Source: a virus (taxonomy: Duplodnaviria > Caudoviricetes). Taken from it: 64,000 bases of DNA. The DNA lies in IMG/VR virus record IMGVR_UViG_2654587994_000003, positions 44,557-108,556 of that record. One strand, 5' to 3'. Below the pieces are notes generated by a model. That model did no database searches, had not been told where the DNA came from, and saw only the letters and a list, made by a program, of their open reading frames with translations. Both the position numbers and the translations under genes were made by a program. This document shows positions 2,518-60,973 of the stretch, piece after piece; position 1 is the first letter of the stretch; the number at the start of each line of letters is the position of its first letter.

Positions 2518-2723
2518 TCTTGTCTCCTCAGTGGCGGTGGTTGACCGCCAGTTGGTAGCTGGCGGCTGGTTGGGGATTGCTGGGGAAGTCGCTGTATAAA
2601 TGCTAAAAAAACCCGAATTTGCCGGTTGTTTCGGTGGTTATCCCCCATTGGCAATTGACCTTCGGCCCGTAGGGAGTCCTTATTGCCATTGTGGTGCCAG
2701 CGAATCTTTCACTGGAGCACCAA

Positions 2724-2873
2724 ATGAAGACCTTCCTTAAGTTCAGGCACGGTAAAACCGAAGGTGAAGCGAACAACACTCTCGGAATGTTGCTGCTTAC
2801 GATCATTGCCGTAACCTACAGGCTTGCGCCGTTCATCGCGCTGGGCGCTGGCGGATACTGGTATGTTCGCTAG
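2724..2873 (+). CDS. Small membrane protein (moron)
   Basis: 49 aa with hydrophobic segment, GGAG RBS, opposite strand to operon. Confidence 0.5.
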   Translation: MKTFLKFRHGKTEGEANNTLGMLLLTIIAVTYRLAPFIALGAGGYWYVR

Positions 2874-2877
2874 GGCG

Positions 2878-4131
2878 TCACGCCACCGCCCTCGCCGGCT
2901 CATTGTCATTGGCCGCCGCATATCGCCCCGCGACCATCTCCGGACGCAACGTGGCGCGGGCAACTTCGCCGAAGCGGCGAGAATACGTGATAACTTTGGC
3001 AGACCGGCCCGACAGCCATCCGCCGCCAGCAGCGTATGCGTCAGGCGCGGCAAGCGTTTCGTGGCGCTCGACATACATCAGCGCCGACTTGCGGCCCTCA
3101 TCGCTGTGCAGGTGCCCGACATGCGCGAAGGCGTACTTCGATGCGCCGAACATTTCGCGGAACATGCCTGCCAACGTCGCATCGACCTGGGCCACGCCAC
3201 GCTTATGGCCGTGGTGATAGAACAGCGCTGTGTCGCCCCACTTGTAGGCGTAATAAAGCATAGGGCTGGTATCGACCGACACGCGCGGCTCGTTCTCGTA
3301 GATCGTCGCCAACAGCTCGCGAACCCATACGGACGAGGCCGGGTCATGGTTGCCCGAAGCCATGACGACGTGAACGTGCTTGTGCTTTTGCAACAGCATA
3401 TCAACGACGCGACGCAGAGTGCGAATAACGACGCGGACCACCTTATGCAGGCGGGAATCGGCGTCGAGAACGTGCTTATGCGCAGGCGTCACGCTCTCAA
3501 GAGCGTCATGGTGCAAGAGGTCGCCGAGCTGCGCGAGAACAGCTGTGTGCGCCTGCGGAGCGCCAGCCACAGCGGCGGCAAACCAATCCAGCAGCAACTG
3601 TTCGGCCAGCCTTAGATCGTAGTCGGCGCCCGTTTCCTCGCGATGGGCCAGCATGCCAAAATGGCTGTCGGTCACAACGAACTGGTTGAGGAGGTCTTCT
3701 TCGATGTGCTGCGGCGCAGGCATTATCGTGATGCGAGGCAGATTTTCCTTGAGGCCGTCGACAACGGCGCGGAACGCGGCCAACTGCCCTTCGGCATCCA
3801 CCGCCGTCTTCTGCCACTGCTGGATAACGCGCCCCTCAGCATCAACGAGGGCAGACACACCTTTGACGACGTGGCCAGTCGGCACCGCGAACTTCTCGCC
3901 CCGTTCCGGCGTCTGCTGGATGAACGTGCCGCTCGGAGTGTTGCTGATACGGCTTATGCGAAAGCCAGGAAGGACAGGCTCCGTGCCAAGAAGGCCAGCT
4001 TCGGCGGCGCGTTTGATGCTCTCGGCAAGAGCGGACTTGCCGATGCCAAGCACGGCGGCAGCCTTCACGAGCGTGCCGTGCTCTTTGTAGGCATCGGCTC
4101 TCCGGCGTAGTTCTTCTATGGGTAGAGGCAT
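2878..4131 (-). CDS. Calcineurin-like metallophosphoesterase with N-terminal HTH
   Basis: TDSHFG, GDLLH, GNHD, HHGH, GHLH motifs; start set at ATG 4131 behind GAGGAG. Confidence 0.8.
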   Translation of the reverse strand: MPLPIEELRRRADAYKEHGTLVKAAAVLGIGKSALAESIKRAAEAGLLGTEPVLPGFRISRISNTPSGTFIQQTPERGEKFAVPTGHVVKGVSALVDAEGRVIQQWQKTAVDAEGQLAAFRAVVDGLKENLPRITIMPAPQHIEEDLLNQFVVTDSHFGMLAHREETGADYDLRLAEQLLLDWFAAAVAGAPQAHTAVLAQLGDLLHHDALESVTPAHKHVLDADSRLHKVVRVVIRTLRRVVDMLLQKHKHVHVVMASGNHDPASSVWVRELLATIYENEPRVSVDTSPMLYYAYKWGDTALFYHHGHKRGVAQVDATLAGMFREMFGASKYAFAHVGHLHSDEGRKSALMYVERHETLAAPDAYAAGGGWLSGRSAKVITYSRRFGEVARATLRPEMVAGRYAAANDNEPARAVA

Positions 4132-4183
4132 GCAGTCTCCTCGATGTGGTGGTGAAGGCCGCTTGGTGGGCGGCCTGATTATT

Positions 4184-4849
4184 TTACTTACGCGCCAGCA
4201 ACTCACAAACCGCAGTCGAAGGCACGACATAGCCATAGCCAACCAGCGAGCCTGAGAAGCCAATAGGCGCAGCCATGACGCCAACAGTGATGCCGATCAG
4301 GTCGCCGTTGTCTGCGTAGACGGGTCCGCCTGACTGGCCCATCACAGTTGTGATGTCTGTCACATAGACCGATTTCCAAGGACCTGTTTCGCGGGACTCG
4401 CCAGCGATCTTTCCGTATGCGGCAACGAATTCGATTTTCAGAGGATTGCCGTAAGCAACGATAGGATCGCCAACATTCACAGCGTGGCAGGCCAGTTTTG
4501 CGACGCCGAGGCCGTCCGACGACGTACGCAGCAGTGCAATGTCATTGGCTTTGTTGACCCAGAGGACATCAGCCTTGCGAAGAGCTCCGCCCTTCGCTTT
4601 CAACTGAACTTCCTTCGCGTCGCCGACGACGTGCGCAGCAGTGACTATGAAGCCATCGCCGATATGAACGCCGGAGCCGTGGCCGTTTTCAAGCTGGATT
4701 TTAACGGTGGCTGTTTCTGTTGCTGCGGGTGTTGGTGGAGGAAGGAGCGCATAGGCGGCCGCAGATGTCGCGGCGATGACGAGGAATAAAGCAACGAGGA
4801 ATGCTGTTGGCGTACGCCGCGACGCGGCATGCAGGAATCGTCTGAGCAT
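4184..4849 (-). CDS. Trypsin-like (S1) serine protease with N-terminal signal/TM segment
   Basis: GSGV, TAAHVV, DIALL, GQSGGP catalytic triad motifs. Confidence 0.85.
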   Translation of the reverse strand: MLRRFLHAASRRTPTAFLVALFLVIAATSAAAYALLPPPTPAATETATVKIQLENGHGSGVHIGDGFIVTAAHVVGDAKEVQLKAKGGALRKADVLWVNKANDIALLRTSSDGLGVAKLACHAVNVGDPIVAYGNPLKIEFVAAYGKIAGESRETGPWKSVYVTDITTVMGQSGGPVYADNGDLIGITVGVMAAPIGFSGSLVGYGYVVPSTAVCELLARK

Positions 4850-4929
4850 GATTATCCCCTCTTTCTGGCGACCGTGCGCCAATGTGGTGGTCTCGGTTGG
4901 TTGCCGAGCGGCTGGTGAGGCCGACAATC

Positions 4930-4961
4930 AAGCTATACTGTTTTTACAAATTTGTCAAGAT
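4930..4961 (-). promoter_or_regulatory. Repeated phage promoter/operator, copy 1
   Basis: TTGACA-17-TAGCTT on minus strand with palindrome ACAAATTTGT; identical 32 bp at 47462-47493. Confidence 0.75.
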
Positions 4962-5003
4962 TTGCGGCCGCCTCAGAATCCCGATTGACTCTTTAGAGCA
5001 TGA

Positions 5004-5018
5004 GAACATAATAAGAAC
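5004..5018 (+). promoter_or_regulatory. Alphaproteobacterial LexA (SOS) box
   Basis: GAAC-N7-GAAC downstream of TTGACT (4985), in front of the SRAP operon. Confidence 0.8.
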
Positions 5019-5021
5019 ATC

Positions 5022-5225
5022 ATGTCTCACAAGATGCGAACACAAGCAATGAAACAGTACAGATTTCGGGCTGGGCGCTGGATCGTAACAGTGCGCGCGC
5101 CGACCTTTGCCCACGCTAAAATAGCCGCCGCAGCAAAGCTGGATCAACGGGCAGCGAAGCTTTTCGCTAGTCCGCCTGCATGCGGCTGGAAGCTTGAACG
5201 ACTAGCAGACACCACCAGAGGATAG
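5022..5225 (+). CDS. Hypothetical protein, first gene of SOS operon
   Basis: ORF directly after the LexA box; start uncertain (5022 or 5049). Confidence 0.5.
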   Translation: MSHKMRTQAMKQYRFRAGRWIVTVRAPTFAHAKIAAAAKLDQRAAKLFASPPACGWKLERLADTTRG

Positions 5226-5229
5226 TCCT

Positions 5230-5430
5230 GTGCGCCCAAATTCAAGAGAACCGCAAGCTGATCCGGTTGACCACATCATTGCATGGCATGACGGCGATAG
5301 CCGCGCCGCGATTGAGACGCTGATGGAAGACATCCAGCACTTGCGGCTGCAGCTTGCGCTGGCGACCGCAGCGATGGGAACCGGCTTCACGAGAGGATGG
5401 AAGCCGGACGCCGACAGAAATGCCAGGTGA
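5230..5430 (+). CDS. Small hypothetical protein
   Basis: 66 aa, GAGG RBS, helical DPVDHIIAWHDGD..LMEDIQHLR. Confidence 0.65.
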   Translation: MRPNSREPQADPVDHIIAWHDGDSRAAIETLMEDIQHLRLQLALATAAMGTGFTRGWKPDADRNAR

Positions 5431-5896
5431 AGGAGCTTATCTGCTTTCGGACTACGGCGGCGAGCCTGTCGGCGTTATATGTGAGGAATGCGAGCTCCTG
5501 AAATTCATTAGTTCGGCCGAGCTAATGGTCGAATTTGGCGACCTGTCGATGCCGACGATGCTGCGGCGCATTTCCCAAGAAGTGATCAAATGCGCTAGGC
5601 CGATGGAGGGCTTTTCAGGCCGCTGCATGCTTCATTACCACGCGCGCGCCGGCAGTCAGATCGATGCATTGAAACAAGCGACGCCGCCGGCCGTTAGAGT
5701 GAAGGAAATTCGAAACTGGGAGATTGTCGTTGCCAAGTGCAACTACTGCGGCCACGTTTCAAATATCCCGCACTGGCAACTGAACCGCGCGGCGAAGACG
5801 GACACTACGGTGGACGAAATTGCCAAGCGACTGAAATGCAAACGATGCAGCGTGAAGGGTGATGTGAAAATCACCATAGCCAAGATGCCGAGGTGA
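5420..5896 (+). CDS. Double zinc-ribbon protein
   Basis: CEEC..C..C and CNYC..CKRC. Confidence 0.65.
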
Positions 5897-5898
5897 GC

Positions 5899-6672
5899 AT
5901 GTGTAACTTGTATCGCATGGAGGACAAGGACTGGGTCTCGAAATGGGCTCAGGACGCCGAAAGCTTTATCAACCTGATGCCGGCCTATCAAATGAACCCC
6001 GATCAGATGGGCCCCATCGTCCGCAACACTGCGGATGGCAAGAAGCAGCTTGTGCATGCGCGCTGGGGCCTGCCCTCACCGATTTTCGTGCAGAAGAAGG
6101 CTGCGGAAGCTCGAGCGGATAAGCTGAGGGCCAAAGGCAAGGCCGTCGATATGGATGAACTCATCCGGATGGAGCCGGACCGCGGTGTGACGAATGTGCG
6201 CAAGCTCAATCTGCCTCACTGGACGCGCTGGTTCGGCGTCGAGCACAGGTGTCTCGTCCCGGTCACCAGCTTTGCCGAGCCGGATCCGGCAAGCAAACAG
6301 GAAGGTGGCAATGTGCCTAATGCCTGGTTTGCCCGAGACGAGGCAAAATCACTCATGTTCTTCGCGGGCATCCACGTGCCGCAATGGAAAAGCGTTCGCA
6401 AGGTGAAGGACGGAATGACCACGGACGATCTCTATGGCTTCCTGACCACGGATCCCAATGATCTCGTTAGGCCCATCCACGAGAAGGCTATGCCCGTTCT
6501 TCTGTTGACGAAGGAAGAAACCGACGTCTGGATGCGGGCGCCTTGGGATGAGGCAAAGCACCTCGCCCGCCCACTGCCAAACGATGCCCTGATTGTGCTG
6601 TCGCGTGAACCTTATGGCTCAACGATTGTTTCGCGAAGCGGAGAACCGGTGGAGCAAGGAAGCCATTTATAA
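5899..6672 (+). CDS. SRAP/YedK-like abasic-site protecting protein
   Basis: N-terminal [28 protein letters not shown]. Confidence 0.9.
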
Positions 6673-6745
6673 CCGGCGGCCGCCGCCAGATGAATGCATG
6701 TCAATGAGGAGAGTAAGCCCACTATTCGGATAGAGGAGGAGGAAG

Positions 6746-7159
6746 ATGCATATTCGCCCCTACATTCTCGAAAATCACGGTGTCTACCCAAAGCGGTTTC
6801 TGGAAGATGGCGACTTCTTCGGAGTGCAAAAAGCCATTCACGAGGATCTGGACGCGCGGCTGATCGCTGAGGTGGATCGAGAATCCGACCTCACCGCCTA
6901 TTCCGGATACGTCGCGATGGAACTGTGGGCCGATGACGACGACATACCGACGGGCGCGAAGATCGAGATGTTGTTCAGTGAACGGAAAGGCATCGCCGCC
7001 GTCCTCTACGACCATCCGAAAATATCCGATGCTTTCATTGAGTGGGTGTTTTGCAACTCGCCCAACGACGCATTGACCAAATGGAAGAAGAAAGTTCGTT
7101 GGCCGCTGATGGAAACATCACGGGGGCCGGTCGACATAACCGGAGAGGCCCAACAATGA
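6746..7159 (+). CDS. Hypothetical protein
   Basis: 137 aa, strong GGAGGAGG RBS. Confidence 0.7.
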   Translation: MHIRPYILENHGVYPKRFLEDGDFFGVQKAIHEDLDARLIAEVDRESDLTAYSGYVAMELWADDDDIPTGAKIEMLFSERKGIAAVLYDHPKISDAFIEWVFCNSPNDALTKWKKKVRWPLMETSRGPVDITGEAQQ

Positions 7160-7323
7160 GCGACCAGACCAGCAAGGCCGGCGACGGCATCCACGAGAAT
7201 CACTGGTGCGAGCATCCGGGCTGTCGTAAATGGGGTGGTTTCGGCTTTAGCCGAAATAAAGTTGAGAAGTCATCCTGGCATTGCTGGGAGCATTATCCGT
7301 TCAAGGAGCAGCGCGGCGGTTAA
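7156..7323 (+). CDS. Small Cys/His-rich protein
   Basis: HWCEHPGC..WGGFG..WHCWEH; ATGA overlap. Confidence 0.7.
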   Translation: MSDQTSKAGDGIHENHWCEHPGCRKWGGFGFSRNKVEKSSWHCWEHYPFKEQRGG

Positions 7324-7355
7324 CGAGCTGCTGCGCCAATCTCAATCACTTTTAC

Positions 7356-7380
7356 GGAACGCCCGGCTTATTATCTCGTT
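7356..7380 (+). promoter_or_regulatory. EcfG/RpoE2-type general stress promoter
   Basis: GGAAC-N16-CGTT upstream of 7415. Confidence 0.65.
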
Positions 7381-7414
7381 CGTCAAATTACAGACGAGAA
7401 CAGGGATTTAGGTA

Positions 7415-7684
7415 ATGCCGCGGTACTACTTTCACGTTCGAGACGCCGAAGGTCTGTCCGTGGATTTCGAGGGCGCTGATTTCGCTAGTGACGAGCGAGC
7501 CTGCGACGAGGCGAAGCAAGCTGCAAAAGAAATGCTTGCGGAGAGAATTCTGAGAGATGAGCTTCTGGACGGCACCATGTTTGAAGTGTTCAAATCAGCC
7601 GGCGTTTTGGTCGCGAAAATCCCGCTGATGTCTGTAATGCGTTTCAAACTTTCGATCAGTCAAAGATTTGACGGTCGCGAGTGA
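7415..7684 (+). CDS. DUF6894-like small protein
   Basis: MPRYYFHVRD..D.EG..F..A..EA pattern. Confidence 0.75.
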   Translation: MPRYYFHVRDAEGLSVDFEGADFASDERACDEAKQAAKEMLAERILRDELLDGTMFEVFKSAGVLVAKIPLMSVMRFKLSISQRFDGRE

Positions 7685-7732
7685 ATCCTGCACCATCGCG
7701 AATGTGTAGGCAGGATTGGAGGGCATCGGCTC

Positions 7733-7841
7733 ATGATGATCATGAGCGAAGAGGACATTCCCGCTTTTGTTGAAGCTTGAGGCGGCTCTGGGAACGGATG
7801 AGCTTGAGCGGATGAAACGGGACGAGGTGAAGAAGCAGTGA
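7733..7841 (+). pseudogene. Frameshifted remnant sharing its C-terminus with 7855-8127
   Basis: MSEEDIPAFVEA/EAALGTDELERMKRDEVKKQ split by a frameshift; compare LEQMKRDEVKNQ. Confidence 0.4.
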
Positions 7842-7854
7842 GGGGCCGCCGAAA

Positions 7855-8127
7855 ATGATGAGCCTGGCACGTCTCATTTGCGGACTTTTTGCGGTTGTGG
7901 CCATCGTTATTTTTATTGGCCTGCTGACGGTAGATCGGTGGTTTACCATCGGGGAACGAGCGCAAGGTGATTACCCGACACGGACGCAGGCAGAACAAGC
8001 CGAGGCTGAAGCTAGGGCGAGCGCAGCGGCCGCGGAAGCTCGTAAGGCGGCTGGGAATGCTTTAAAGGCGTCAGAGGAGACAAACGGGCTTGAGCAAATG
8101 AAACGCGACGAGGTGAAAAATCAATGA
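7855..8127 (+). CDS. Membrane-anchored hypothetical protein
   Basis: N-terminal TM helix, Ala-rich coil. Confidence 0.6.
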   Translation: MMSLARLICGLFAVVAIVIFIGLLTVDRWFTIGERAQGDYPTRTQAEQAEAEARASAAAAEARKAAGNALKASEETNGLEQMKRDEVKNQ

Positions 8128-8173
8128 GCGGTGAAGGGGTAATTTTCGGTCCTGTCACTGGGGAAGCAAAATA

Positions 8174-9178
8174 ATGCGCTCGATTCTACTTTTCCTTTGT
8201 TTCTCGGCATTCTCCTGCCTTCACGCGAACGCCGACGATATTCAGGCCGGTGGTGAACAGTGGCAAGACCCGACATGCAAAGATGTGGCGCGCGCAATCA
8301 TCATGACTGAGATCTATCCTTCTTATTCCTACGAGATGCCTCTTGTGCGAGAAGACGGGACATATCGCCCTTTCATCGAGAGGAAATTTTCACCGACCGA
8401 ACGCCAGGAAAAGCGGCATTTTGAGAAGGAGTGGAGATCAACTCCTCGCCTTGGCGTCGAGTGGTCGTCTTGGGACAGATATGAGCCCACCTTGACAAAC
8501 TGCAAGCTGGTTGGCTCGGAAGTGGACGCGAGAGGCGTGGTAATTCACTACCGGATGAACTGGACCAGCCTCCCTTACCGAGCGGAAATGGATGCGTGGG
8601 TTTCGCAAGACCATCAGATGTTAACGCGTGTTACACGTCGCTACCTCGGCGGTGGATTAGAGTTCCCCGAGGAACGAGTGGCGTTTCTGTTCAAGTATGA
8701 CGGCCTCTTGATCACCTCGCCACTGAGGAGCCCAAGACCTTCCGACAGCCTCACATCTTGCGATCGGGTGAAACGGATGGTTGCGAAATTCAATGAGACG
8801 CAAGCCGTCCAAATGACGATGCGATTCGTCAATAATGGCGAAGGAGAACCTTATTTTGGCCAGTATTTGCACGTTGGCGCAAAGGAGTACTCGCGAGATA
8901 CAGGATGGCCGTGGGAAGTCCGGGATCGTGTATTCGTCCCTACAGAGATAATTAACAAATGCAAATTGCTCGGCTTTCAAGAAGTAAATGGCATTGCAAC
9001 TTCATTGTATGAATACGAAAGGCCAGACCTTCGAGACGGCGAACTGCGTATCCTGACCTGGATTTCTGACGAAACCCATCTGCCCGTAAAGGCCCATTTC
9101 ACACGGCCAAAGCCCGTCGATGGTTTCGAGGTGTACATCACCTATGCATTCGACCCGGACGTGAAAGCGCCAATCTGA
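8174..9178 (+). CDS. Secreted protein with two tandem similar domains
   Basis: Signal peptide; internal repeat TC..NCKLVG..WVS versus SC..KCKLLG..WIS. Confidence 0.7.
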   Translation: MRSILLFLCFSAFSCLHANADDIQAGGEQWQDPTCKDVARAIIMTEIYPSYSYEMPLVREDGTYRPFIERKFSPTERQEKRHFEKEWRSTPRLGVEWSSWDRYEPTLTNCKLVGSEVDARGVVIHYRMNWTSLPYRAEMDAWVSQDHQMLTRVTRRYLGGGLEFPEERVAFLFKYDGLLITSPLRSPRPSDSLTSCDRVKRMVAKFNETQAVQMTMRFVNNGEGEPYFGQYLHVGAKEYSRDTGWPWEVRDRVFVPTEIINKCKLLGFQEVNGIATSLYEYERPDLRDGELRILTWISDETHLPVKAHFTRPKPVDGFEVYITYAFDPDVKAPI

Positions 9179-11709: not shown

Positions 11710-11714
11710 GAAGC

Positions 11715-53844: not shown

Positions 53845-53904
53845 GCAAATCTCCTCAAACGTGGTGAAATAGCGGGCCGCTGGTGAGGCAGCCCGCGTTG
53901 ACGG

Positions 53905-54483
53905 TTACTTGCTGCCCCAAGGCCGACGCGTCGTGCCGGCGGCCGCAGCGGCAGGCTTGTTGTCATTGCTGGCGGCTGTGCGGCGGTTGTCGTTGGCTGC
54001 GGCTGGCGCAGCATCGACCTTCGGCTCAGGCAGGTTGCCCTCATCGGGGTAATAGTACTTCTTCACCTCGTTGCGGGCCGCGTACTTCGGCGTGCCGTCG
54101 GCGTTCTTCTCCTTGCTATCCTTCCCCATGCCGATGCGCGCCATGAAGGAGATGAAGTGGAGCTCGTCGGAGTCTTCTGGCGCCTCGTTCAAGCCGAGTG
54201 AGCGCAGGAGGCAGGCAAATTGGCGCTGACCGATTTCCTGGGTCTGAGGGTTTGGATGCTGCAGATTGTAGTTGTTGAAGACCTTGCGGCCTTTGAGTTC
54301 CTCTGGAGCAAGGACGTCGATGGTCACGCTCAGATTGATGGCGTGGTCGCGGGTGTCCTTGTTCTTTTCCTTGATCTCGGAGGCGCTGATTTCCAGCTGG
54401 TAGTCGCCGTTCGGCAGGTTGGTGAAATCGCGCTGTTGGGTGTTCTCTTCGGTCGCTTCAACTCTGACGCCAATCTTGGCCAT
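53905..54483 (-). CDS. DUF669-family ssDNA-binding protein
   Basis: LPNGDY..GRKVF..NL..N.VK..PW; follows Sak4. Confidence 0.75.
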   Translation of the reverse strand: MAKIGVRVEATEENTQQRDFTNLPNGDYQLEISASEIKEKNKDTRDHAINLSVTIDVLAPEELKGRKVFNNYNLQHPNPQTQEIGQRQFACLLRSLGLNEAPEDSDELHFISFMARIGMGKDSKEKNADGTPKYAARNEVKKYYYPDEGNLPEPKVDAAPAAANDNRRTAASNDNKPAAAAAGTTRRPWGSK

Positions 54484-54513
54484 GCGTAGTCTCCTTCAGT
54501 GGTGGTGTGGTGG

Positions 54514-54669
54514 TTAGCGGAGGTAGTAGCGGAAAGGTCCGCTACCGAATTGCGTCGATGCCTGGTCACGCCAGACATGAGTGAGCCAAACCCAGATCAG
54601 CTGGCCGGAGCGAGTGCGCGCCTTGACGGGGTGCCACGCGAACCACGATTCGCCGCGGAACATGGTCAC
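54514..54669 (-). CDS. Small Trp-rich protein (below ORF-track cutoff)
   Basis: Manual translation MTMFRGESWFAWHPVK..WVWL. Confidence 0.55.
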   Translation of the reverse strand: MTMFRGESWFAWHPVKARTRSGQLIWVWLTHVWRDQASTQFGSGPFRYYLR

Positions 54670-55439
54670 GCCGCCACTCCCGTGGGCGCCGGGAAGTGCT
54701 TCGCCAACTCCGCATAGCCCTGCCCTTTTCGATAAGGCACGGCGTCCGGCATCGAGTAGCGATTCTTGGCGTTGAAGCCTGCGCCCTCGACCAGATGGAT
54801 CTGGCGTTCCTTGCCGCCCTCAGCGTGAGCCACTTTCGTCTGCCGCGCGACTTCCTTTTCCTTGATGGAGATGCGGTAGTTCATGAAGGCGACGATGTCG
54901 GACTTCTCGCGGACCAGCGCATTGGCGCGCTTGTGCAGCTTCGGCTGATAGCGGCTATAGGGGTCTGTGACAGGGCTGTCGAAGCGGACGATCTCGGGGT
55001 GCGCAAGCATCACTACGCAGATGCCTCGTTGAGCCAGAGCAGCAACCGCTGCCATTAGCTCATTCCACTCTGTGTCTGTTTCGATGTAGCCGCGACCGTA
55101 GCCAGGCTCCTCGATCGATGCCACGCCGATGCGGCGGCAGGTAGCTGCCCAGACCAAAGGCTCCAGGCCGTCGAGGCTGTCGATAATAACCGTCTTACGG
55201 TCGTGCTCCTCGGTGAGCAGTTCGCCGAAAACGTCCAGCAGTTCGTCGAAGCTTTCAATGGTGCCAGGCGTGACGAGTTCAACGTCGGACGGTGTGCGCT
55301 CGCCTTCTGTTGGCAAATAGAGCGCGTCAGGAAATTCTGCGGCAAGGCTGGTCTTGCCTATACCGTCGACGCCGTAGAGCAGAATGACAGGCGGGTCCGC
55401 TCTCTTCGTCGACTTCAGGGACGAAAGTGAAATAGCCAT
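54666..55439 (-). CDS. Sak4-like AAA_24 recombinase
   Basis: LYGVDGIGKT, IIDSLD, GYGRGY, AKNRY. Confidence 0.88.
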   Translation of the reverse strand: MAISLSSLKSTKRADPPVILLYGVDGIGKTSLAAEFPDALYLPTEGERTPSDVELVTPGTIESFDELLDVFGELLTEEHDRKTVIIDSLDGLEPLVWAATCRRIGVASIEEPGYGRGYIETDTEWNELMAAVAALAQRGICVVMLAHPEIVRFDSPVTDPYSRYQPKLHKRANALVREKSDIVAFMNYRISIKEKEVARQTKVAHAEGGKERQIHLVEGAGFNAKNRYSMPDAVPYRKGQGYAELAKHFPAPTGVAA

Positions 55440-55504
55440 AAGGCCTCCTCAATGTGGTGCGGTTAAAATGATGGCGACGATGTAGGCAGCGGCTGTGATA
55501 ACGA

Positions 55505-55732
55505 TCAGCGCGCGAAAAGACGGCACAAGAGCCACCAGAATGCGCTGAGGACGGCGATCGCGACGAGTGCGAACGGAAAGAGCATGATGAGGCCGACGGC
55601 CGCTGCTGCGGTCAGCGCCGCGATGCTGCCGCGCTTCAGGCCACGCGTTACGTATTTGCGCGGCGTCGGTGTGACTGGCACGTGGTCGAGCGGAGGTGCG
55701 GTGATGGATTCGGTGTACCAGGGGGATGTCAT
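55505..55732 (-). CDS. Small membrane protein
   Basis: Two hydrophobic segments, ATGA coupling. Confidence 0.55.
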   Translation of the reverse strand: MTSPWYTESITAPPLDHVPVTPTPRKYVTRGLKRGSIAALTAAAAVGLIMLFPFALVAIAVLSAFWWLLCRLFAR

Positions 55733-55875
55733 GCCAGAGCTCCCAAGAAATAGAGAACGCCAACAGAAGGCAGGACAGCCAGCCATAGTACAAGTAGCGC
55801 AAAAGCAGTTAAGGTTAGCGCAGCCTCAGAGAAGCCAGACCAGAAGGCTGGCCAGTTCGTTGCGGGGCGCGTCAT
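55729..55875 (-). CDS. Small membrane peptide (below cutoff)
   Basis: Manual translation MTRPATNWPAFW..ALLVLWLAVLP..; ATGA coupling on both sides. Confidence 0.5.
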   Translation of the reverse strand: MTRPATNWPAFWSGFSEAALTLTAFALLVLWLAVLPSVGVLYFLGALA

Positions 55876-56183
55876 GCCGCAATCCTCACCTCGTCAGCCA
55901 AAGCCCTCCGACGAGCCGCGCTGTGCATGTAGATCGGCAGGCGGTGTTCGCTCACCTTTGCATTGGCTGCATCGCGTGCCGCCCGCTTGCGATCGCCCCT
56001 CGTTGTTCCATCAGCAAACTTGCGCACCTCTTTTTGGAAGTTGCTGAAGCCATCGCCGCCGGTGAGGACGGACATCAGGTGCATGCGACGGTCGAAATGA
56101 GCGGCGTCGGTGGAAGGCATGCCGAGCTTGGTGTCGTTCTCATGCTCACGCTGCGCAAGCTTATCGAATACGTTCTTAGACAT
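55872..56183 (-). CDS. Hypothetical protein
   Basis: 103 aa, GAGGAG RBS. Confidence 0.65.
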   Translation of the reverse strand: MSKNVFDKLAQREHENDTKLGMPSTDAAHFDRRMHLMSVLTGGDGFSNFQKEVRKFADGTTRGDRKRAARDAANAKVSEHRLPIYMHSAARRRALADEVRIAA

Positions 56184-56243
56184 ATTAGTCTCCTCAATGA
56201 TGTGGTGGAGCGCGGCTGGTTGGTGGCCAGCCGCTAGCGCTGG

Positions 56244-57137
56244 TTAGGCTGCTTGCTCGTATTCGATCCACGCCTCGACGGCGTCTTTGGCGCCCTTCAG
56301 TGTGAGACCCGCAACCGCCCGCAGCTCCTTGATCGCATCGATCTTGAGGCCCAGCGCAGCCATGTTCTGCCACTTGTGGTCATAGACCGGCGCGGCTTCT
56401 TCGTGCGTCGTGGTCAGGGTGAAGACGCCGAACTGCTTGCCTTTGTACTTTGCCGCGAGGCGCTTTGCTTCCTTCTCGGCTGCGACGGTGGACGCGTGTA
56501 CGTGCGGTGTCGACGATGGTTTGGGCTGGCCGTTTTCGATGAGGGCGACGATGGTGGTGGTGGTGGTGGTGGTGATTAGTTCGATGCTATCTATGGGGTC
56601 GGTCGCACCCCAACCCTCTTTCGTCCAGTGCGTGCGAACTGTGCGCTGGTCGACAACCTCTTTCACGACGCCCTCAAACTTGAGGGTCTTGTGGCGAATA
56701 AGGTCACCAACCTTGAACTTCGGCTGCGCGTTGTCGTTGCTTGGCTTGGCCACGGGATCGCCGATCCATTCGGCGATGATGTCGTTCTGCTCATGACCTC
56801 CGACGCCATTCCAGTAGTATCCATCGCGCCGCCACTGCTTGCCGTCAGCCGCGTAGATGTTGCCCCCTGCGTAAGTCACCGGCCCAACCTTCCGGCCATC
56901 GCGCGTTTTGTAGAACTTACCTTCCTCGATCTTGAGGGTGGAGGCAGAAGGTTCGAGGTTCGAGGCCTTAGCCCACCACCGTCCGGATTCAGAGAAATCC
57001 ACATAGTACGTGTGGTCAACGGCGTCGTACTGGATGACCGTGCCGAGCTCTCCGGTCTTTCCGTATCGACCGTGCCCGTTGTAATCTCCAGAATTGATCA
57101 GTCTAACTTCGTCACCCTTCTTAAACTTCCCCATCAC
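56244..57137 (-). CDS. Mosaic multi-domain protein with C-terminal bL12-like domain
   Basis: KF..GD.V SH3-like modules; KIDAIKELRAVAGLTLKGAKDAVE. Confidence 0.7.
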   Translation of the reverse strand: MMGKFKKGDEVRLINSGDYNGHGRYGKTGELGTVIQYDAVDHTYYVDFSESGRWWAKASNLEPSASTLKIEEGKFYKTRDGRKVGPVTYAGGNIYAADGKQWRRDGYYWNGVGGHEQNDIIAEWIGDPVAKPSNDNAQPKFKVGDLIRHKTLKFEGVVKEVVDQRTVRTHWTKEGWGATDPIDSIELITTTTTTTIVALIENGQPKPSSTPHVHASTVAAEKEAKRLAAKYKGKQFGVFTLTTTHEEAAPVYDHKWQNMAALGLKIDAIKELRAVAGLTLKGAKDAVEAWIEYEQAA

Positions 57138-57415
57138 GCTGCTCCTTCCGTTGTTGTCTCGGCGGTCATCGCGCGCCGTTGTGTGAAGTCGACCTTGACG
57201 ACGTTGGTGTCGTCATCCTCTTTTGCTGGCGGCTCGCCCTCCGGATCGTGTTCGATCTCGAAGCCGTGCCACCAGATCGTCGATGCGCCGTCAGCAAGTC
57301 GCACCTGGTACTCGCTGCCCCAGTTGCGATCGCCGATGACGACGCCAGTGAGATGAGGGTTTTGTCTGTTGCGGACCGGATCGCCGAAATTGAAAAATTC
57401 GCAATCGCAGCTCAT
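57134..57415 (-). CDS. Hypothetical SH3-like protein
   Basis: FNFGDPV..TGVVIG..YQVRL. Confidence 0.6.
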   Translation of the reverse strand: MSCDCEFFNFGDPVRNRQNPHLTGVVIGDRNWGSEYQVRLADGASTIWWHGFEIEHDPEGEPPAKEDDDTNVVKVDFTQRRAMTAETTTEGAA

Positions 57416-57762
57416 GCCGCCACCCGCTCACTACGCAGTGCGTAGTCGTTGACCGCCTGCCCCGCCGCCAGATCTTCAGCATTGTCATTTGCCGCGGCAA
57501 GAACGCGCGGGAGCGAAACCGGCATAAGGCCGGAAAGCGTGGAGCAACCGCCGTTGTGCGGCGCCAGGTGCGTCGTGCGGTCGGGATTGTTGTCGTTGGC
57601 GGCAATGATGGCGCGCTGCTTGTGCAGGCCGTATGTGCGCCGAAGCCGCTGGTATGCTGCCATTGGCTTGACGTTGTATCTGGCGGCGATATCTGCGACG
57701 CTCTCACCGTTTTCACGGCGCGCGTGCATATCCGCCAGCATTGTGCTGGTGATAAGCGTCAT
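57412..57762 (-). CDS. Small HTH protein (cro-like position)
   Basis: GESVADIAARYNV..AYQRL; first gene after promoter copy 3. Confidence 0.7.
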   Translation of the reverse strand: MTLITSTMLADMHARRENGESVADIAARYNVKPMAAYQRLRRTYGLHKQRAIIAANDNNPDRTTHLAPHNGGCSTLSGLMPVSLPRVLAAANDNAEDLAAGQAVNDYALRSERVAA

Positions 57763-57815
57763 GTCGTCTCCTCTGGGTGGTGGCCGCTTGTGGTTGACAA
57801 AGCGACAGGGTTATG

Positions 57816-57847
57816 AAACTAAACTATTTTTACAAATTTGTCAAGAT
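57816..57847 (-). promoter_or_regulatory. Repeated phage promoter/operator, copy 3
   Basis: TTGACA-17-TAGTTT with the same ACAAATTTGT core. Confidence 0.7.
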
Positions 57848-57864
57848 TTCACGAAGGTGGATGC

Positions 57865-58467
57865 ATGCCTGAAGTTAAGTCGCGCCTCCTGCAGTCGATA
57901 CTGAAAGAACAGAAGCGGAGAGCCGTAAAGGATCGCGCTGTCTACGAAGAGTTAGGCGTGCCTCAGCAGACCTTCAGCACCTGGAAAGCTGGCGTCATAC
58001 CGAGACCAAGACAATTCCCGGCGATTGCCGCCTTCCTCGGTGTCTCCGAAGAAGATGTGGCGGAGATGGCTCGCGAGGCGGCCGAAACAGCCCCGTCCAT
58101 CACGCCGATTACGGTTGCCCGTACCTACGGCAAGATTTCCGACCGCAAGGCTGGCAAATTCAAATTCGAACCAATCAACGATGGCCGCAAACGTATTCCT
58201 GAAGGCAGGTACGCGATCATCATAGACACGAAAGTGATGGAGCCTGTCTTCCACGTTGGCGTGAAAGCTTGGCTTGACCCTTCCCGCTGGCCCGCCGCCG
58301 GTGACGACGTTCTGGCCCATTCTGGCGGATTCGCCTGGATTGGGCGCTTCGAAGGAATGAGCAACGGCGCCGTTCAGCTTGGCCACTACGATGGATCGCA
58401 GCTTGAAGTGAAGAACGTGGAAGCTGTCCATGTCATCGTCCTTTCGGAGCGGGTGGTTACAGCATAG
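57865..58467 (+). CDS. XRE-HTH repressor with degenerate S24-like C-terminus
   Basis: ELGVPQQTFSTWKAG..P; VMEPVFHVG..WLDP. Confidence 0.75.
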   Translation: MPEVKSRLLQSILKEQKRRAVKDRAVYEELGVPQQTFSTWKAGVIPRPRQFPAIAAFLGVSEEDVAEMAREAAETAPSITPITVARTYGKISDRKAGKFKFEPINDGRKRIPEGRYAIIIDTKVMEPVFHVGVKAWLDPSRWPAAGDDVLAHSGGFAWIGRFEGMSNGAVQLGHYDGSQLEVKNVEAVHVIVLSERVVTA

Positions 58468-58491
58468 CGAGGTGGTGGCTCGGAATGCTGC

Positions 58492-58520
58492 TTGACAATT
58501 CCTACAAATTTGTGTAGGAG
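58492..58520 (+). promoter_or_regulatory. Promoter/operator variant in front of the candidate sRNA
   Basis: TTGACA-17-TAGGAG containing ACAAATTTGT within CCTACA..TGTAGG. Confidence 0.6.
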
Positions 58521-58524
58521 ATTG

Positions 58525-58656
58525 ATCGTCCGCTGTGGTGGCGGATATGGAATACGCGCTTTGATCCCGCCTTACGGCGAAGGTCTCCTCGGCGTGTTAG
58601 TACGGAGAAGGGGCGGAGTTACGGGTGGTGCCGGCTCATTACGCCCCTTTTCGTTT
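58525..58656 (+). ncRNA. Candidate trans-acting antisense sRNA
   Basis: Three stem-loops exposing TGTGGTG, GTCTCCTC and GTGGTG; last stem AAGGGGCG..CGCCCCTT followed by T-run. Confidence 0.6.
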
Positions 58657-58741
58657 TCTGCTGCATGCACGACAACGCCGGCAGAGCTTCATGCTCCACC
58701 GGCGCTAAGTTTTCGAAGTCATTGTTTGCGGTCTTTCTCAT
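58619..58741 (-). CDS. 40 aa peptide
   Basis: GGGGAGAC RBS, MRKTANNDFENL..; 3' end overlaps the sRNA terminator antisense. Confidence 0.45.
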   Translation of the reverse strand: MRKTANNDFENLAPVEHEALPALSCMQQKTKRGVMSRHHP

Positions 58742-58797
58742 AGTCGTCTCCCCTTCTGGCATTATTGGTTTTGTTATCGCCAGTTGGTTGCTGGCGT

Positions 58798-58941
58798 TTA
58801 CGGCGGCCCGGTCACTGGCCGCCATCTTCTTCTGCGATCGGGAGCTTCATGCTCCCATCTTCTTCTCGCCGTCATGGCGGTCATGCCGATCAGCGCTTGG
58901 GTCGTCGATCGTCTTCTTTCGCAATCCTTAAACATGCGCAT
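58798..58941 (-). other. AGA-run leader peptide / structured leader RNA
   Basis: 47 codons with three AGA runs interleaved with hairpins; AAGGGA RBS. Confidence 0.45.
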
Positions 58942-59014
58942 TCCCTTTCATGCTGCAGGTTCGTCTTGGGGTCTGTTGCCCTGTCGGCTTCTTGTTTGGC
59001 CGCTGTTGATTTTG

Positions 59015-59056
59015 GTTTTACCCGTATTTGGGTTGGTCGTCAACCCGAATATGCAT
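59015..59056 (-). promoter_or_regulatory. pR-like promoter with two repressor operators
   Basis: TTGACG-17-TAAAAC; operators ACCCGTATTTGGGT (59020) and ACCCGAATATGCAT (59043). Confidence 0.7.
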
Positions 59057-59090
59057 TTTACTTGCATTTATTTATGGGTTATCTGACATC

Positions 59091-59750
59091 ATGGATACTG
59101 TGGCCCTCACTCGAATGCTGATCTCACACTACGGCAATGAAGAAGCGTTGGCCGCCCTAGCCGGCGTGGGGCAGTCATCGGTAAACAGGTGGGCGAACGG
59201 CGGAAACATTCGGGGTAACCACCTTCTTCGCTTGATGGAACTAGCGCGTAGCGTTCCGTCTGCCGCGGACATCATTGCTGACGTTACTGACGTCGCCTCA
59301 CATAATGAAGGCTTCACGCCGACGGTCGTACCTGGTCGAGAACTAGTAGGCGAGAAAAATCTCCCTGTTTTCGCAGCCGCGATGGGCGGAGAGGGCCATC
59401 AGATCGTGACATTTGATGCGATCGATTATGTGAAACGACCATCCATCCTAGAGAACGTCAAGGATGCCTACGGCGTATACATCGTCGGAGAATCGATGAC
59501 TCCCGCCTTCGAACCGGGAGACATGGCGCTCGTGCATCCACACCTACCTCCGGCGCGCGACAAGAACGTTGTGCTTTACCATGTCCCTCCATTTGGGCAC
59601 GGAGAAGCAGAAGCGATCGTCAAGCGCCTGGTCAGGTGGAGCGACCGAGACTGGCACCTAAAACAGTACAATCCGAGCATCGAATTCACCGAATCTCGCG
59701 CGGACTGGAAGTGGTGCCATCGTATCGTAGGCAAGTATGAGGCTCGATAA
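59091..59750 (+). CDS. CI-like repressor (HTH plus S24 peptidase)
   Basis: LAALAGVGQSSVNRW; GESMTP and IVKRL catalytic Ser/Lys; no SD, possibly leaderless. Confidence 0.9.
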   Translation: MDTVALTRMLISHYGNEEALAALAGVGQSSVNRWANGGNIRGNHLLRLMELARSVPSAADIIADVTDVASHNEGFTPTVVPGRELVGEKNLPVFAAAMGGEGHQIVTFDAIDYVKRPSILENVKDAYGVYIVGESMTPAFEPGDMALVHPHLPPARDKNVVLYHVPPFGHGEAEAIVKRLVRWSDRDWHLKQYNPSIEFTESRADWKWCHRIVGKYEAR

Positions 59751-59760
59751 GCGGCATCCG

Positions 59761-59997
59761 TCACTCATAAGCAGGCAAATCCGCAATATGCTCTGGCACC
59801 TCACCGGCGCCAGCAACTAAAAAAAGCTCACTGGACGATGCGGCTATAGCGACTACGCAGACTTTCTCTGGGGAAATCCTGTCAACGATTTTCCTTGCGT
59901 GCGCGACTGAACCAACCTGCATTGGAGCATCCGGAGATACCCCTCCTCGCGTTGAACGCGTGAAACTCTGCACAATAAACACTTCGCTCAAATCCAT
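59761..59997 (-). CDS. Small LexA-boxed hypothetical protein
   Basis: 78 aa, GGAGG RBS, SOS box upstream. Confidence 0.65.
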   Translation of the reverse strand: MDLSEVFIVQSFTRSTRGGVSPDAPMQVGSVAHARKIVDRISPEKVCVVAIAASSSELFLVAGAGEVPEHIADLPAYE

Positions 59998-60032
59998 AAC
60001 CCTCCATTGCCAGAACACTGACTCCAAAACTA

Positions 60033-60047
60033 GAACAAAACAAGAAC
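60033..60047 (-). promoter_or_regulatory. LexA (SOS) box
   Basis: GTTC-N7-GTTC on minus strand. Confidence 0.75.
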
Positions 60048-60081
60048 TTTATTCCTGATTCGCGCCGCTGCATTTTTTGTT

Positions 60082-60122
60082 ATGCACATTAGGTTGACAA
60101 ATAACCCGTATACGCATATCCA
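60082..60122 (+). promoter_or_regulatory. pL-like promoter with operators
   Basis: TTGACA at 60094 flanked by ATGCACATTAGGTT and ACCCGTATACGCAT, similar to the 59020/59043 operators. Confidence 0.7.
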
Positions 60123-60193
60123 TTCTCTCGCCAGCACGAAGAAGCCCACCAGCAGATCTGCCGGCCCACCACCACCACAAGAGGAGATACACA

Positions 60194-60547
60194 ATGTACA
60201 GACCGCGTCCCGAAGAGTTTGACGATATCCATGTAGCAGCGTCCAGCGTCGAGCCAATGCTCCGCCCGGACCACAAAGCGAAGAAGCACGGCAAGCCCAA
60301 GACGAAATATGAATACCTGCGCCGCCTCCCCAAGAAGCCGCGCAATGGCGAGGAAGTCGGCGGTGGCCACTTCGTATTCCGCCGCGGCGACAGCACTGGA
60401 CGCATCCGTCCCTGCATGTGGCCCTTCGAGCACCCCTCCTACGATTCAGCGCTGGTTGAAGCCGCACGCCTTCACAAAGAGCATGGCGGCACCTTTGAAG
60501 TGTTCGTTCGCGTCGGCCGCGTCGAGACGCTGGAGGCCGGCGAATGA
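60194..60547 (+). CDS. Hypothetical early protein
   Basis: 117 aa, GAGGAG RBS. Confidence 0.7.
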   Translation: MYRPRPEEFDDIHVAASSVEPMLRPDHKAKKHGKPKTKYEYLRRLPKKPRNGEEVGGGHFVFRRGDSTGRIRPCMWPFEHPSYDSALVEAARLHKEHGGTFEVFVRVGRVETLEAGE

Positions 60548-60678
60548 GCGCGGCTGCCGCCGAGAAGCCGACCGTCCAGCAAATCATCACCGAAGAGCAC
60601 GCCGACCTGATGAAGGACATAGCCAGTTTTCTGGCTTTATCGCTCTTCATCACGGCAGTGCTGATCTGGGGTTATTGA
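60544..60678 (+). CDS. Small membrane peptide (below cutoff)
   Basis: 44 aa, ATGA overlap, C-terminal TM. Confidence 0.5.
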   Translation: MSAAAAEKPTVQQIITEEHADLMKDIASFLALSLFITAVLIWGY

Positions 60679-60689
60679 GGGAGGCCGGC

Positions 60690-60941
60690 ATGGCATATGG
60701 CGACTACAGCGGTCCGGATAAGGCCGACAAAGGCAAAGAGGGAGGCAGCTGCAACCGGCGTAGATGCCAATGCGCCCCAGCCAACTGGTATAACCACGGC
60801 TCCCTTTCTTGGTACTGCGAGGACTGCAAGGAGCAAATCTACGACCCGATCGGCCAGCGGTATTGGAAGCAGGACTTTCCGAACGCCACTCACCCGATGT
60901 TCGAAACACGCAAGATGATGGACGACCGCCAAGCGTCCTAA
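60690..60941 (+). CDS. Small zinc-finger protein
   Basis: CNRRRCQ..WYNH..WYCEDC; GGGAGG RBS. Confidence 0.65.
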   Translation: MAYGDYSGPDKADKGKEGGSCNRRRCQCAPANWYNHGSLSWYCEDCKEQIYDPIGQRYWKQDFPNATHPMFETRKMMDDRQAS

Positions 60942-60973
60942 CCACCACCAAACACCACACCGAGGAGACAAAC

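Follow-up and report, generated by a model that had tools for sequence, protein, structure and literature searches.

Start-associated sequences (SAS) and their extended form (ESAS) in cluster K mycobacteriophages were described in 2011 (PMC3203893). In the consulted part of that paper, the SAS is a phage-specific conserved sequence which includes the Shine-Dalgarno (SD) sequence, lies 3-7 bp before the start codon, and occurs in 11-19 copies in one orientation; it precedes non-structural genes only, mostly where start/stop coupling is absent, is virtually absent from the host genome, and has an inverted repeat upstream of about half of its sites. SAS function was still called untested in 2025, as far as the consulted portion of a later paper goes (PMC12699233). 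This study concerns a leader element in a window of 64,000 nucleotides (nt), the last 64 kb of the 108,556-nt provirus record IMGVR_UViG_2654587994_000003. The element, which consists of a hairpin with an ACCA-containing loop, a CACCAC box, and an extended SD, precedes about sixteen early genes of an Agrobacterium-type prophage.

By analogy, SAS/ESAS is the closest relative of this leader among described systems. The leader shares the phage-specific conserved sequence around the SD, the multiple copies in one orientation, the restriction to non-structural genes, mostly without start/stop coupling, and the near absence from host DNA (37 of 38 strict matches lie in prophage stretches, see below); an inverted repeat upstream of about half of the sites is shared too. 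As the SAS position rule demands, the leader SD lies 3-5 nt before the ATG and follows the gene strand. However, the SAS 13-mer GGGATAGGAGCCC has no match in the window with up to two mismatches, the host phylum differs, and the leader has an extra C/A box which the SAS does not have. The ESAS are imperfect 17-bp inverted repeats with conserved arms and a variable spacer, and in the same consulted text their authors judged these repeats, conserved in sequence, to be DNA sites not supporting RNA pairing (PMC3203893); the leader is the opposite, with 35 distinct stems and a conserved 7-nt loop. Since the rules match those of the SAS while the sequence is unrelated and the repeat is of the opposite kind, the leader belongs with start-associated sequences as a kind, and is not a member of the SAS family.

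A second comparison is offered by C/A-rich, ACA-containing elements just 5' of the SD, which are translational enhancers in Salmonella and are silenced by the small RNA (sRNA) GcvB; their presumed role is to anchor the 30S subunit, perhaps via S1, and ACA is found in the loops of S1 ligands (Yang et al. 2014, PMC3879156, consulted in part). The leader box is also a G-poor C/A element directly 5' of the SD, commonly with ACA (CACCACA), of a type that is a natural target of a regulatory RNA. In the consulted text the Salmonella elements belong to host genes of one physiological regulon and are described without a conserved hairpin, whereas the leader has one, and an enhancer role of its box would follow by analogy. 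Unlike the GcvB case, no G/U-rich RNA complementary to the CACCAC box was found, and the box is rare at the host genes of these Rhizobiales.

Anatomy, strand and structure of the leader

The leader observation is confirmed, since all 17 sites listed in a preliminary description of the window bear the described elements in the mRNA sense. In order, the module consists of a hairpin of 4-9 bp with a loop of 6-10 nt, mostly the 7-nt CCACCAA, CTCACCA, CTACCAA or CAACCAA; a spacer of 0-10 nt and the CACCAC(A) box; a spacer of 2-6 nt and the SD GAGGAGAC; and a spacer of 3-5 nt and the ATG (Table 1). All hairpins with an ACCA-type loop in Table 1 lie on the minus strand, and six sites (36338, 54489, 55443, 60146, 60940, and 5217) have box and SD without such a hairpin. 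The box reads CACCACA at 4145, 36346, 46048, 47429, 52971, 55453, and 56201.

A chance origin of the composite motif is excluded by comparison with 100 dinucleotide-preserving shuffles of the window. CACCAC-N0-8-GAGGAGAC occurs nine times (one on the plus and eight on the minus strand), as against a shuffle mean of 0.02 and a maximum of 1; CACCA-N0-12-GRGGAGR occurs 19 times as against 0.34, and GAGGAGAC-N2-6-ATG ten times as against 0.13. All 12 copies of GAGGAGAC in the 108,556-nt contig are inside the window. Among 469 non-identical GAGGAGR start sites, a CACCA box lies within 25 nt in 290, its end mostly 2-6 nt ahead of the SD; positions -12 to -3 are 70-85% A+C, and the box region is G-poor.

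The hairpins are real, strand-specific structures. In 33 related prophage loci, which were picked by Sak4 protein similarity and not by the motif, box plus SD was found 108 times on the gene strand and 26 times on the other, and hairpins with the loop motif 50 times and five times, respectively. The motif therefore follows mRNA orientation, as had been proposed, and it does flip to the plus strand in the two plus-strand leaders that start at 60166 and 60941. The contig and these loci together contain 190 non-identical GAGGAGR start sites. A CACCA box is no more than 25 nt away in 112 of them, and 87 of these 112 also have an upstream hairpin of at least 5 bp. In the same set the commonest loops are CCACCAA (18), CTCACCA (9), CACCA (5), and CTACCAA (4), and 53 ACCA loops stand on 35 different stems.

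Circularity in the pairing test was avoided by selecting loop motifs with a separate box and SD after them, with the flanks ignored, which gave 36 distinct sites. The four closing positions of these are paired in 81-92%, as compared with 0-61% after sliding of the 3' partner, and stems of at least 4 bp are present in 26 of the 36. In an alignment of 23 C-N-ACCAA loops, 81.0% of the cells are paired (44.6% when shuffled) with a covariation of 0.772 (0.203); in one of 13 CTCACCA loops the values are 74.0% (44.2%) and 0.631 (0.192). None of 500 shuffles reaches the observed values, slid controls give 27-43%, and double changes occur at eight of eight pairs; the rows are partly related sequences, so that these figures overstate independence, but the stems are nevertheless plainly non-homologous. 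The earlier statement that stems differ while loops are conserved is thus borne out, with all stem positions co-varying and ACCA fixed in the loop, and stems that co-vary round a fixed loop are the pattern expected of an RNA-level signal.

One orthologous leader hairpin (L088:2540-2580) has the inverted loop TTGGTGG on the same stem where its relatives have CTACCAA or CCACCAA, which shows that flipping occurs and is rarely kept.

Distribution over genes, hosts and phages

The gene map was made from our own crude gene calls with PHROGs and Pfam. On these calls, 12 of 38 early-class genes have the composite motif ahead of them, as against one of 29 lysis/late genes and none of nine plus-strand genes at 5230-9979, in agreement with the claim that it is essentially absent from head and tail genes. 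The leader-bearing early genes serve replication, recombination, nucleotide metabolism, and excision (classes by PHROGs), and the leaders stand before cistrons of the early operons that come after an intergenic gap.

In five whole host genomes (Agrobacterium, Rhizobium, and Neorhizobium, 5.1-6.9 Mb each), the strict composite has 6, 6, 8, 8, and 10 matches, of which 37 of 38 are inside one 45-62 kb stretch per genome; the lone match outside is on G003:C15, and the reversed-pattern control gives none. With the looser pattern CACCAC-N1-8-GGAG-N4-9-ATG, 17 of 27, 13 of 20, 17 of 24, 11 of 19, and 18 of 30 matches (76 of 120 in total) fall within these stretches, which are about 1% of the DNA, and the reversed control gives 4, 0, 3, 7, and 1. 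The grammar had been called genome-wide, which holds across the prophage; the host chromosomes are nearly free of it. An equal frequency before host or late genes, named in advance as evidence against the earlier reading, was not observed, and that reading is not refuted by these counts.

An exact-pattern scan of IMG/VR returned at least 120 stretches, among them the 60,195-nt record of Rhizobium phage 16-3 with four matches, and several loci pack 8-16 box, SD, and hairpin elements into 8-15 kb. In 16-3 the leaders precede p029, p046, p061, p072, p075, Sak4 (p077), p078, p079, the sigma factor p086, p089, and the major head gene, and none of them is annotated as a feature in the record. The annotated start of the 16-3 (L155) clamp gene, 42583, falls within the leader hairpin and has no SD; a start at 42643, in frame and 20 codons downstream, behind GAGGAGAC, is predicted from the leader grammar.

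Capsid-gene leaders keep CACCA in 20 of 47 distinct cases, and the 16-3 capsid gene has an intergenic CACCAC-AGATT-GGAGAC. The CACCAC before the major-head gene of the window was dropped as support for an enhancer, because it is part of the coding sequence at the end of the upstream gene, and many relatives have CACCCC there, a synonymous change.

The grammar is strong in prophages of Agrobacterium, Rhizobium, Neorhizobium, and Devosia, weaker in Brucella/Ochrobactrum, and absent from Ahrensia and Roseobacter relatives. Overall, the leader module is specific to 16-3-like temperate siphophages of Rhizobiales, and many uncultured relatives have it in common with 16-3. As an expression signal it appears to be undescribed: no description was found in the literature, where subscription-journal papers on 16-3 and supplements were outside the scope and may hold an earlier mention, and the paper that compares AP-16-3 with 16-3 (PMC10460002) nowhere mentions hairpins or stem-loops, Shine-Dalgarno sequences, ribosomes, intergenic regions, or motifs.

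Table 1. Leaders and other features of the window (positions in the window; hairpins given as stem-loop-stem in mRNA sense)
Feature	Position	Strand	Elements
Pyrophosphatase leader (gene 2089-2517)	2515-2566	minus	hairpin GCCGCCAG-CTACCAA-CTGGCGGT 2544-2566; box ACCACC 2536-2541; SD GAGGAGAC 2522-2529; ATG 2517
SbcD-like exonuclease leader (gene 2878-4131)	4129-4176	minus	hairpin AGGCCGC-CCACCAA-GCGGCCT 4156-4176; box CACCACCACA 4145-4154; SD GAGGAGAC 4135-4142
Protease leader	4847-4958	minus	promoter-like repeat 4933-4958; tandem hairpins CGGC-CTCACCA-GCCG 4909-4923 and CTCGG-CAACCAA-CCGAG 4892-4908; box ACCACCACA 4883-4891; weak SD AGAGGGG 4856-4862; ATG 4849
Leader (third, weaker plus-strand)	5210-5232	plus	
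Leader of gene 35389-36333	36331-36352	minus	no hairpin; box CACCACA 36346-36352; SD GGGGAGAC 36338-36345
Leader of VRR-NUC-like gene 36371-36844	36842-36882	minus	hairpin GTGTCG-CCACCA-CGACAC 36865-36882; box CACCAC 36857-36862; SD GAGGAGAC 36849-36856
Leader of helicase gene 44623-46032	46030-46090	minus	hairpin GCCGCG-CCACCAA-CGCGGC 46072-46090; box CACCACA 46048-46054; SD GAGGAGAC 46036-46043
Leader of Gam-like gene 46887-47414	47412-47490	minus	promoter-like repeat 47465-47490; hairpin ACGCCA-CACCAA-TGGCGT 47436-47453; box CACCACA 47429-47435; SD GAGGAGAC 47419-47426
Leader of sigma-factor gene 50371-50907	50905-50945	minus	hairpin GGCG-CCACCAA-CGCC 50931-50945, within end of upstream open reading frame (ORF); no separate CACCAC box; SD GAGGAGAC 50912-50919
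Leader of sliding-clamp gene 51898-52953	52951-53004	minus	hairpin TGCCTGCCG-CTCACCA-CGGCAGGCA 52980-53004; box CACCACACA 52971-52979; SD GAGGAGAC 52958-52965
Leader of gene 53011-53844	53842-53896	minus	hairpin GCGGGCTGC-CTCACCA-GCGGCCCGC 53872-53896; box CACCAC 53861-53866; SD GAGGAGAT 53849-53856
Leader of SSB-like gene 53905-54483	54481-54514	minus	no ACCA hairpin; long box ACCACCACACCACCAC 54499-54514; SD GAAGGAGAC 54489-54497
Leader of Sak4-like gene 54666-55439	55437-55459	minus	box CACCACA 55453-55459; SD GAGGAGGC 55443-55450
Leader of gene 55872-56183	56181-56234	minus	hairpin GCGGCTGG-CCACCAA-CCAGCCGC 56212-56234; box CCACCACA 56201-56208; SD GAGGAGAC 56188-56195
Leader with a promoter-like repeat divergent from repressor gene 57865-58467	57760-57844	minus	promoter-like repeat 57819-57844; hairpin GTCGCTT-TGTCAACCAC-AAGCGGC 57783-57806; box CCACCACCCA 57774-57783; SD GAGGAGAC 57766-57773; ATG 57762
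Short-ORF leader (start 58741)	58739-58796	minus	hairpin CGCCAG-CAACCAA-CTGGCG 58778-58796; no CACCAC box; SD GGGGAGAC 58746-58753
Leader	60166-60196	plus	box CCACCACCACCACAA 60166-60180; SD GAGGAGAT 60181-60188; ATG 60194
Leader	60941-60976	plus	box ACCACCACCAAACACCACACC 60941-60961; SD GAGGAGAC 60962-60969; ATG 60974
Candidate trans-acting RNA (86 nt)	35099-35184	minus	directly 3' of tRNA-Met; hairpin with 8-nt loop UUCUCCUC, then intrinsic-terminator hairpin and U-run
tRNA-Met	35183-35256		between early operon and late genes
Main early operon (long)	57762 down to 35389	minus	
Second early-type operon	4849 down to about -251	minus	protease, SbcD-like exonuclease, pyrophosphatase
Late genes	terminase 32047-33690 to endolysin 10732-11619	minus	terminase to tail fibre and endolysin
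Two repressor-like genes	57865-58467 and 59100-59750	plus	
Integrase	62446-63507	plus	right end; xis-like gene beside

The promoter-like repeat of Table 1 is a 26-nt sequence, TTGACAAATTTGTAAAAAYAGTWTAG, in three near-identical minus-strand copies, and contains the palindrome ACAAATTTGT; a hairpin lies immediately 3' of each copy. It also occurs at operon heads in 16-3 (before p061 and p089) and in many relatives. Since it is distinct from the annotated OL/OR operators of 16-3, a second, conserved regulator may act there. A promoter/terminator scan of 57000-61300 gave nothing above shuffles and no indication of an antisense RNA opposite the plus-strand leaders.

The leader as a proposed cis-acting start signal and its possible readers

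With moderate confidence, the element is read here as a cis-acting start-associated mRNA leader, in which a strong ribosome site is combined with a C/A-rich docking box and an insulating hairpin. Its anatomy, strand specificity, stem covariation, and restriction to early genes and to phage DNA are observed directly, and so is a more open predicted ribosome site, with a probability of being unpaired at -18 to +4 of 0.58 in 12 leader genes and 0.44 in 77 others (p = 5e-4). The position of the module ties it to translation initiation. In the proposed mechanism, a GC-rich RNA stem would present C-N-ACCAA or CUCACCA in a 7-nt loop, the CACCAC(A) box would remain single-stranded and G-poor up to its end 2-6 nt ahead of the SD, and the extended SD GAGGAGAC, followed by 3-5 nt and the AUG, would form the ribosome-loading site. 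Judging from the known anti-SD motif CCUCC of 16S rRNA, GAGGAG can pair with the anti-SD, while the conserved trailing AC and the box presumably cannot.

The C/A box, together with the further copy in the loop, may serve as an enhancer or as a docking element for 30S or S1, and the hairpin may insulate the ribosome site from upstream coding RNA and stabilise the transcript. At the three promoter-like repeats, the hairpin would be the very start of the presumed transcript, which fits a 5'-stabiliser; inside operons it comes after the upstream stop codon, where it could block 3' exonucleases and insulate the next ribosome site. The common GAGGAG core might in addition let the CUCCUC-loop RNA at 35099-35184, or some other factor, address the whole gene set.

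Several observations weigh against this reading. A hairpin of at least 5 bp is also found at 45 of the 78 box-less GAGGAGR sites; few of those have ACCA loops, and the loop content alone is distinctive. The difference in accessibility is modest and was built on our own crude gene calls. The primase/polymerase gene 39837-42059, the helicase gene 48069-49823, and gene 50928-51857 follow gaps yet lack a leader. Host genes hardly use a CACCAC box beside the SD, and therefore a commonplace host enhancer is disfavoured. Insulation or stability alone cannot account for a fixed loop with drifting stems, and therefore something must still read the element, be it the ribosome or a dedicated factor. Four RNA-labelled runs from one study matched 44001-63900 as long, evenly covered, genome-like contigs that give no RNA ends, strand or level; they merely marked the repeats 47462-47493 and 63681-63725. 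A non-template DNA hairpin of the RfaH/ops kind was rejected on size, as 17-29 nt is too large for a transcription bubble.

The preliminary description had proposed an RNA-level regulon read by an sRNA or a phage protein. The RNA-level signal, the orientation, the early class, and the host non-use all stand, while the reading in trans is a proposal. The trans-acting candidate with the best case is the RNA at 35099-35184, with which the main early operon ends. Regulatory RNAs with C/U-rich loops directed at the SD include the cuckoo/CcsR type of Alphaproteobacteria and c4 of P1/P7. The element resembles these in its CUCCUC loop, its co-varying stem, and the terminator after it; unlike them, it has no Rfam match, is single-copy, phage-borne, and at the early/late junction, and its targets are putative. 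It is possible, though we regard it as doubtful, that the leaders form a regulon under this RNA, which would come from the 3' end of the main early operon or together with the adjacent tRNA, pair with all early ribosome sites, and shut early translation as it accumulates, as a feedback or timing layer atop the cis function.

The fold of this RNA (a hairpin and a terminator) has a minimum free energy of -39.1 kcal/mol (z = -4.9), and none of 200 shuffles folds as well. CTCCTC is invariant in 14 of 14 aligned relatives despite quite different stems, and the CUCCUC loop is the exact complement of the leader GAGGAG core; GAGGAGA, its 7-nt complement, precedes 13 of 38 early-class and none of 29 late genes. 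A covariance model of the element (R1) has one strong match in its own contig and 1, 1, 1, 2, and 1 matches in the five whole host genomes (E 1e-14 to 1e-30), with one match per genome inside the leader-bearing prophage, on the leaders' strand and shortly after the main early operon's last leaders. Homologues occur both with and without a tRNA alongside: there is one match each in the Devosia and Brucella pituitosa genomes, none in B. daejeonensis or the leader-free Ahrensia and Roseobacter relatives, and the 16-3 homologue (59749-59835) is within the annotated ORF p109. One CUCCUC-loop hairpin-terminator RNA is present in each of 12 leader-rich phages checked, and five capsid-selected proviruses, picked for an R1-like element, all carry leaders (2, 9, 2, 17, and 13 matches). 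At the gathering score, Rfam 15 families match only the tRNA-Met in the window, and in 35000-35400 no family comes near threshold, the best being Atu_C7 (12.6 bits, gathering score 45).

A hint of loop/SD co-variation would also favour this RNA, because the Brucella-type loop UUUCUCCUC fits the SD of its own phage, GAGGAGAA, in four of four leaders, and phages whose loop is CCUCCUCU have A at -1 more often (15 of 20) than those whose loop is UUCUCCUC (9 of 37). However, the hint is suggestive in two loop types, comes from few independent lineages, and is contradicted by the G005 phage, which has A at -1 in nine of nine leaders though its loop offers no partner; it is not counted as evidence. 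The complementarity is just 6-7 nt, to an SD that any anti-SD-like loop would match, so that specificity is weak, and the RNA has no conserved complement to the hairpin loop or the CACCAC box. Full-length duplex energies with ribosome-binding regions do not set leader genes (-36.1 kcal/mol) apart from others (-33.6 kcal/mol; p = 0.2), but the method ignores intramolecular structure and the comparison is given no weight. R1 adjoins the late module and also turns up where strict leaders number only 0-2, in the capsid-related records G019, G017, and G016, of which two are incomplete; therefore, it may be no more than the terminator of the early operon, or an attenuator of the late operon, and move together with the late module. 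Overall, there is real support, short of proof, for the view that the early set could be addressed by a single phage RNA. Kissing between the terminator loop of this RNA and the leader loops was rejected, since that apical loop is not conserved.

The cis and trans functions may also be parts of one scheme, which we put forward as speculative and rather improbable. In such a two-part translation code, the early-cistron tag (ACCA-loop hairpin, CACCAC box, and GAGGAGAC) would recruit ribosomes by a docking contact unused in host mRNAs, and the CUCCUC RNA would later mask all tagged sites. The docking contact could be a general ribosome or S1 recognition element, perhaps behind the mycobacteriophage SAS too.

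It is unlikely that a protein reads loop and box, be it an RNA-binding protein on two CACCA copies, a RegA- or CsrA-like regulator, or a lambda-N-like antiterminator with a boxB-like hairpin. Such a protein would explain why the loop is fixed and the stems are free, why the pentamer comes in two copies 8-16 nt apart beside the SD, and why the distribution is phage-specific; the single natural flipped loop among about 100 hairpins suggests selection on loop orientation, and the hairpin directly after each of the three repeated promoters recalls a lambda-type nut site. The latter consists of boxA and a boxB hairpin, lies once per early operon, and is read by an N-type arginine-rich protein. Leader and nut site share the linear box and the hairpin, the conserved loop with a stem that varies between phages, and the place just downstream of early promoters, but the leader has 12 or more copies per genome, many of them within operons and all tied to a start codon, and its hairpin precedes its box. 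CsrA/Rsm sites have GGA in a hairpin loop and at the SD, whereas the leader loops CCACCAA, CTCACCA, CTACCAA, and CAACCAA contain no G. Among 20 early proteins scanned against Pfam there is no RNA-binding domain, and PHROGs likewise gave none. The presence of no early protein tracks the grammar when 29 window proteins in 34 loci are set against leader counts, where an absence is weak because the loci are only 20 kb. Neither an antitermination nor an RNA-binding protein, and so no N-like protein, was identified among the early proteins by Pfam, PHROGs, or the presence table.

Improbable, too, is the view that the leaders serve mainly as linkers for recombination or as mobile regulatory cassettes, kept for module shuffling and with an ordinary role in expression. 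That the repeated leaders are crossover points for gain and loss of gene cassettes is seen directly, as a side effect. In the interval between the SSB and clamp genes, the window and one relative (L036) carry gene 53011-53844, L122 (11650-12440) has an unrelated gene instead, and L121 and L123 have nothing; the junctions fall within leaders. L121 (12090-12200) has a hybrid leader, to which the first copy contributes the hairpin and CACCAC and the second the spacer, SD, and ATG, with the junction at the CACCAC box, while in L123 (7130-7230) the crossover is inside GAGGAGA; these are two independent events at a repeated leader, at base resolution. Homology blocks between relatives also often end at leaders. 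However, sequence identity suffices for recombination, so that the start-codon distance, the SD content, the compensatory stems, and the strand rule are left unexplained, and stems that have diverged leave less homology for an exchange to use.

As readers of the leader, the sRNA-like units at 11.7-12.6 kb were rejected because their UCCCC-type loops are complementary to no leader element. These are three terminator-ended units on the plus strand at 11700-11900 and 12512-12590 with UCCCC or CCCCCC loops, two of them near-identical and one with z = -4.2.

The prophage and the significance of its leaders

The window DNA is an Agrobacterium-type prophage with a lambdoid-style layout. With a prophage Sak4 of 95-96% identity, Agrobacterium pusense, A. 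tumefaciens, and A. burrii are the nearest hosts, and Rhizobium phage 16-3 is the sole named phage with DNA similarity to the contig. The main early operon encodes Sak4, SSB, a sliding clamp, a Cas4-like nuclease, a sigma factor, two helicases, Gam, a methyltransferase, and a primase/polymerase. Left of the window, positions 1-44000 of the contig hold a second phage-like region with structural genes on the plus strand, where the leader grammar precedes none of 52 genes; therefore, the provirus record is probably two adjacent prophages. A 45-nt repeat at 63681-63725, which runs on into tRNA-like sequence in assemblies and adjoins the integrase and a xis-like helix-turn-helix gene (62205-63507), is the probable attachment core at the right end of the prophage.

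A low-GC island at 37212-39840 inside the early operon (49% GC in 38001-40000) encodes an AbiJ-like protein (AbiJ_NTD4 and DUF7014) without a leader, and is likely to be a defence moron. A conserved early protein of 296 aa (56244-57134, minus strand) has SH3/KOW-like repeats and a C-terminal stretch which resembles the L7/L12 C-terminal domain, with a Pfam score of 22.7 bits, under the cut-off of 25.9. Many early proteins contain an (A)ANDN peptide, e.g. those of 57412-57762, 36371-36844, 35389-36333, 53011-53844, and 60974-61186, and many end in -AA (RVAA, EQAA, RIAA, DRAA, PWAA).

For practical purposes, the grammar corrects start-codon calls, such as that of the 16-3 clamp gene, which is apparently annotated 20 codons too long, and flags early genes in uncultured Rhizobiales phages. 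For the engineering of Agrobacterium and Rhizobium it also provides a strong ribosome site that is compact, modular, and equipped with an insulator, and the leaders mark the cassette-swap points of these phages at base resolution. Since 2011 the start-associated sequences of phage genomes have gone without an explanation, and the leader is a second, independent system of this kind. It comes with a tractable setting (16-3 in Sinorhizobium meliloti and the Agrobacterium prophages), an RNA hairpin clearly under selection, and a candidate trans-acting RNA; therefore, the question of what reads such a tag is directly testable here. If the two-part code is true, these phages would have an early-to-late switch at the level of translation.

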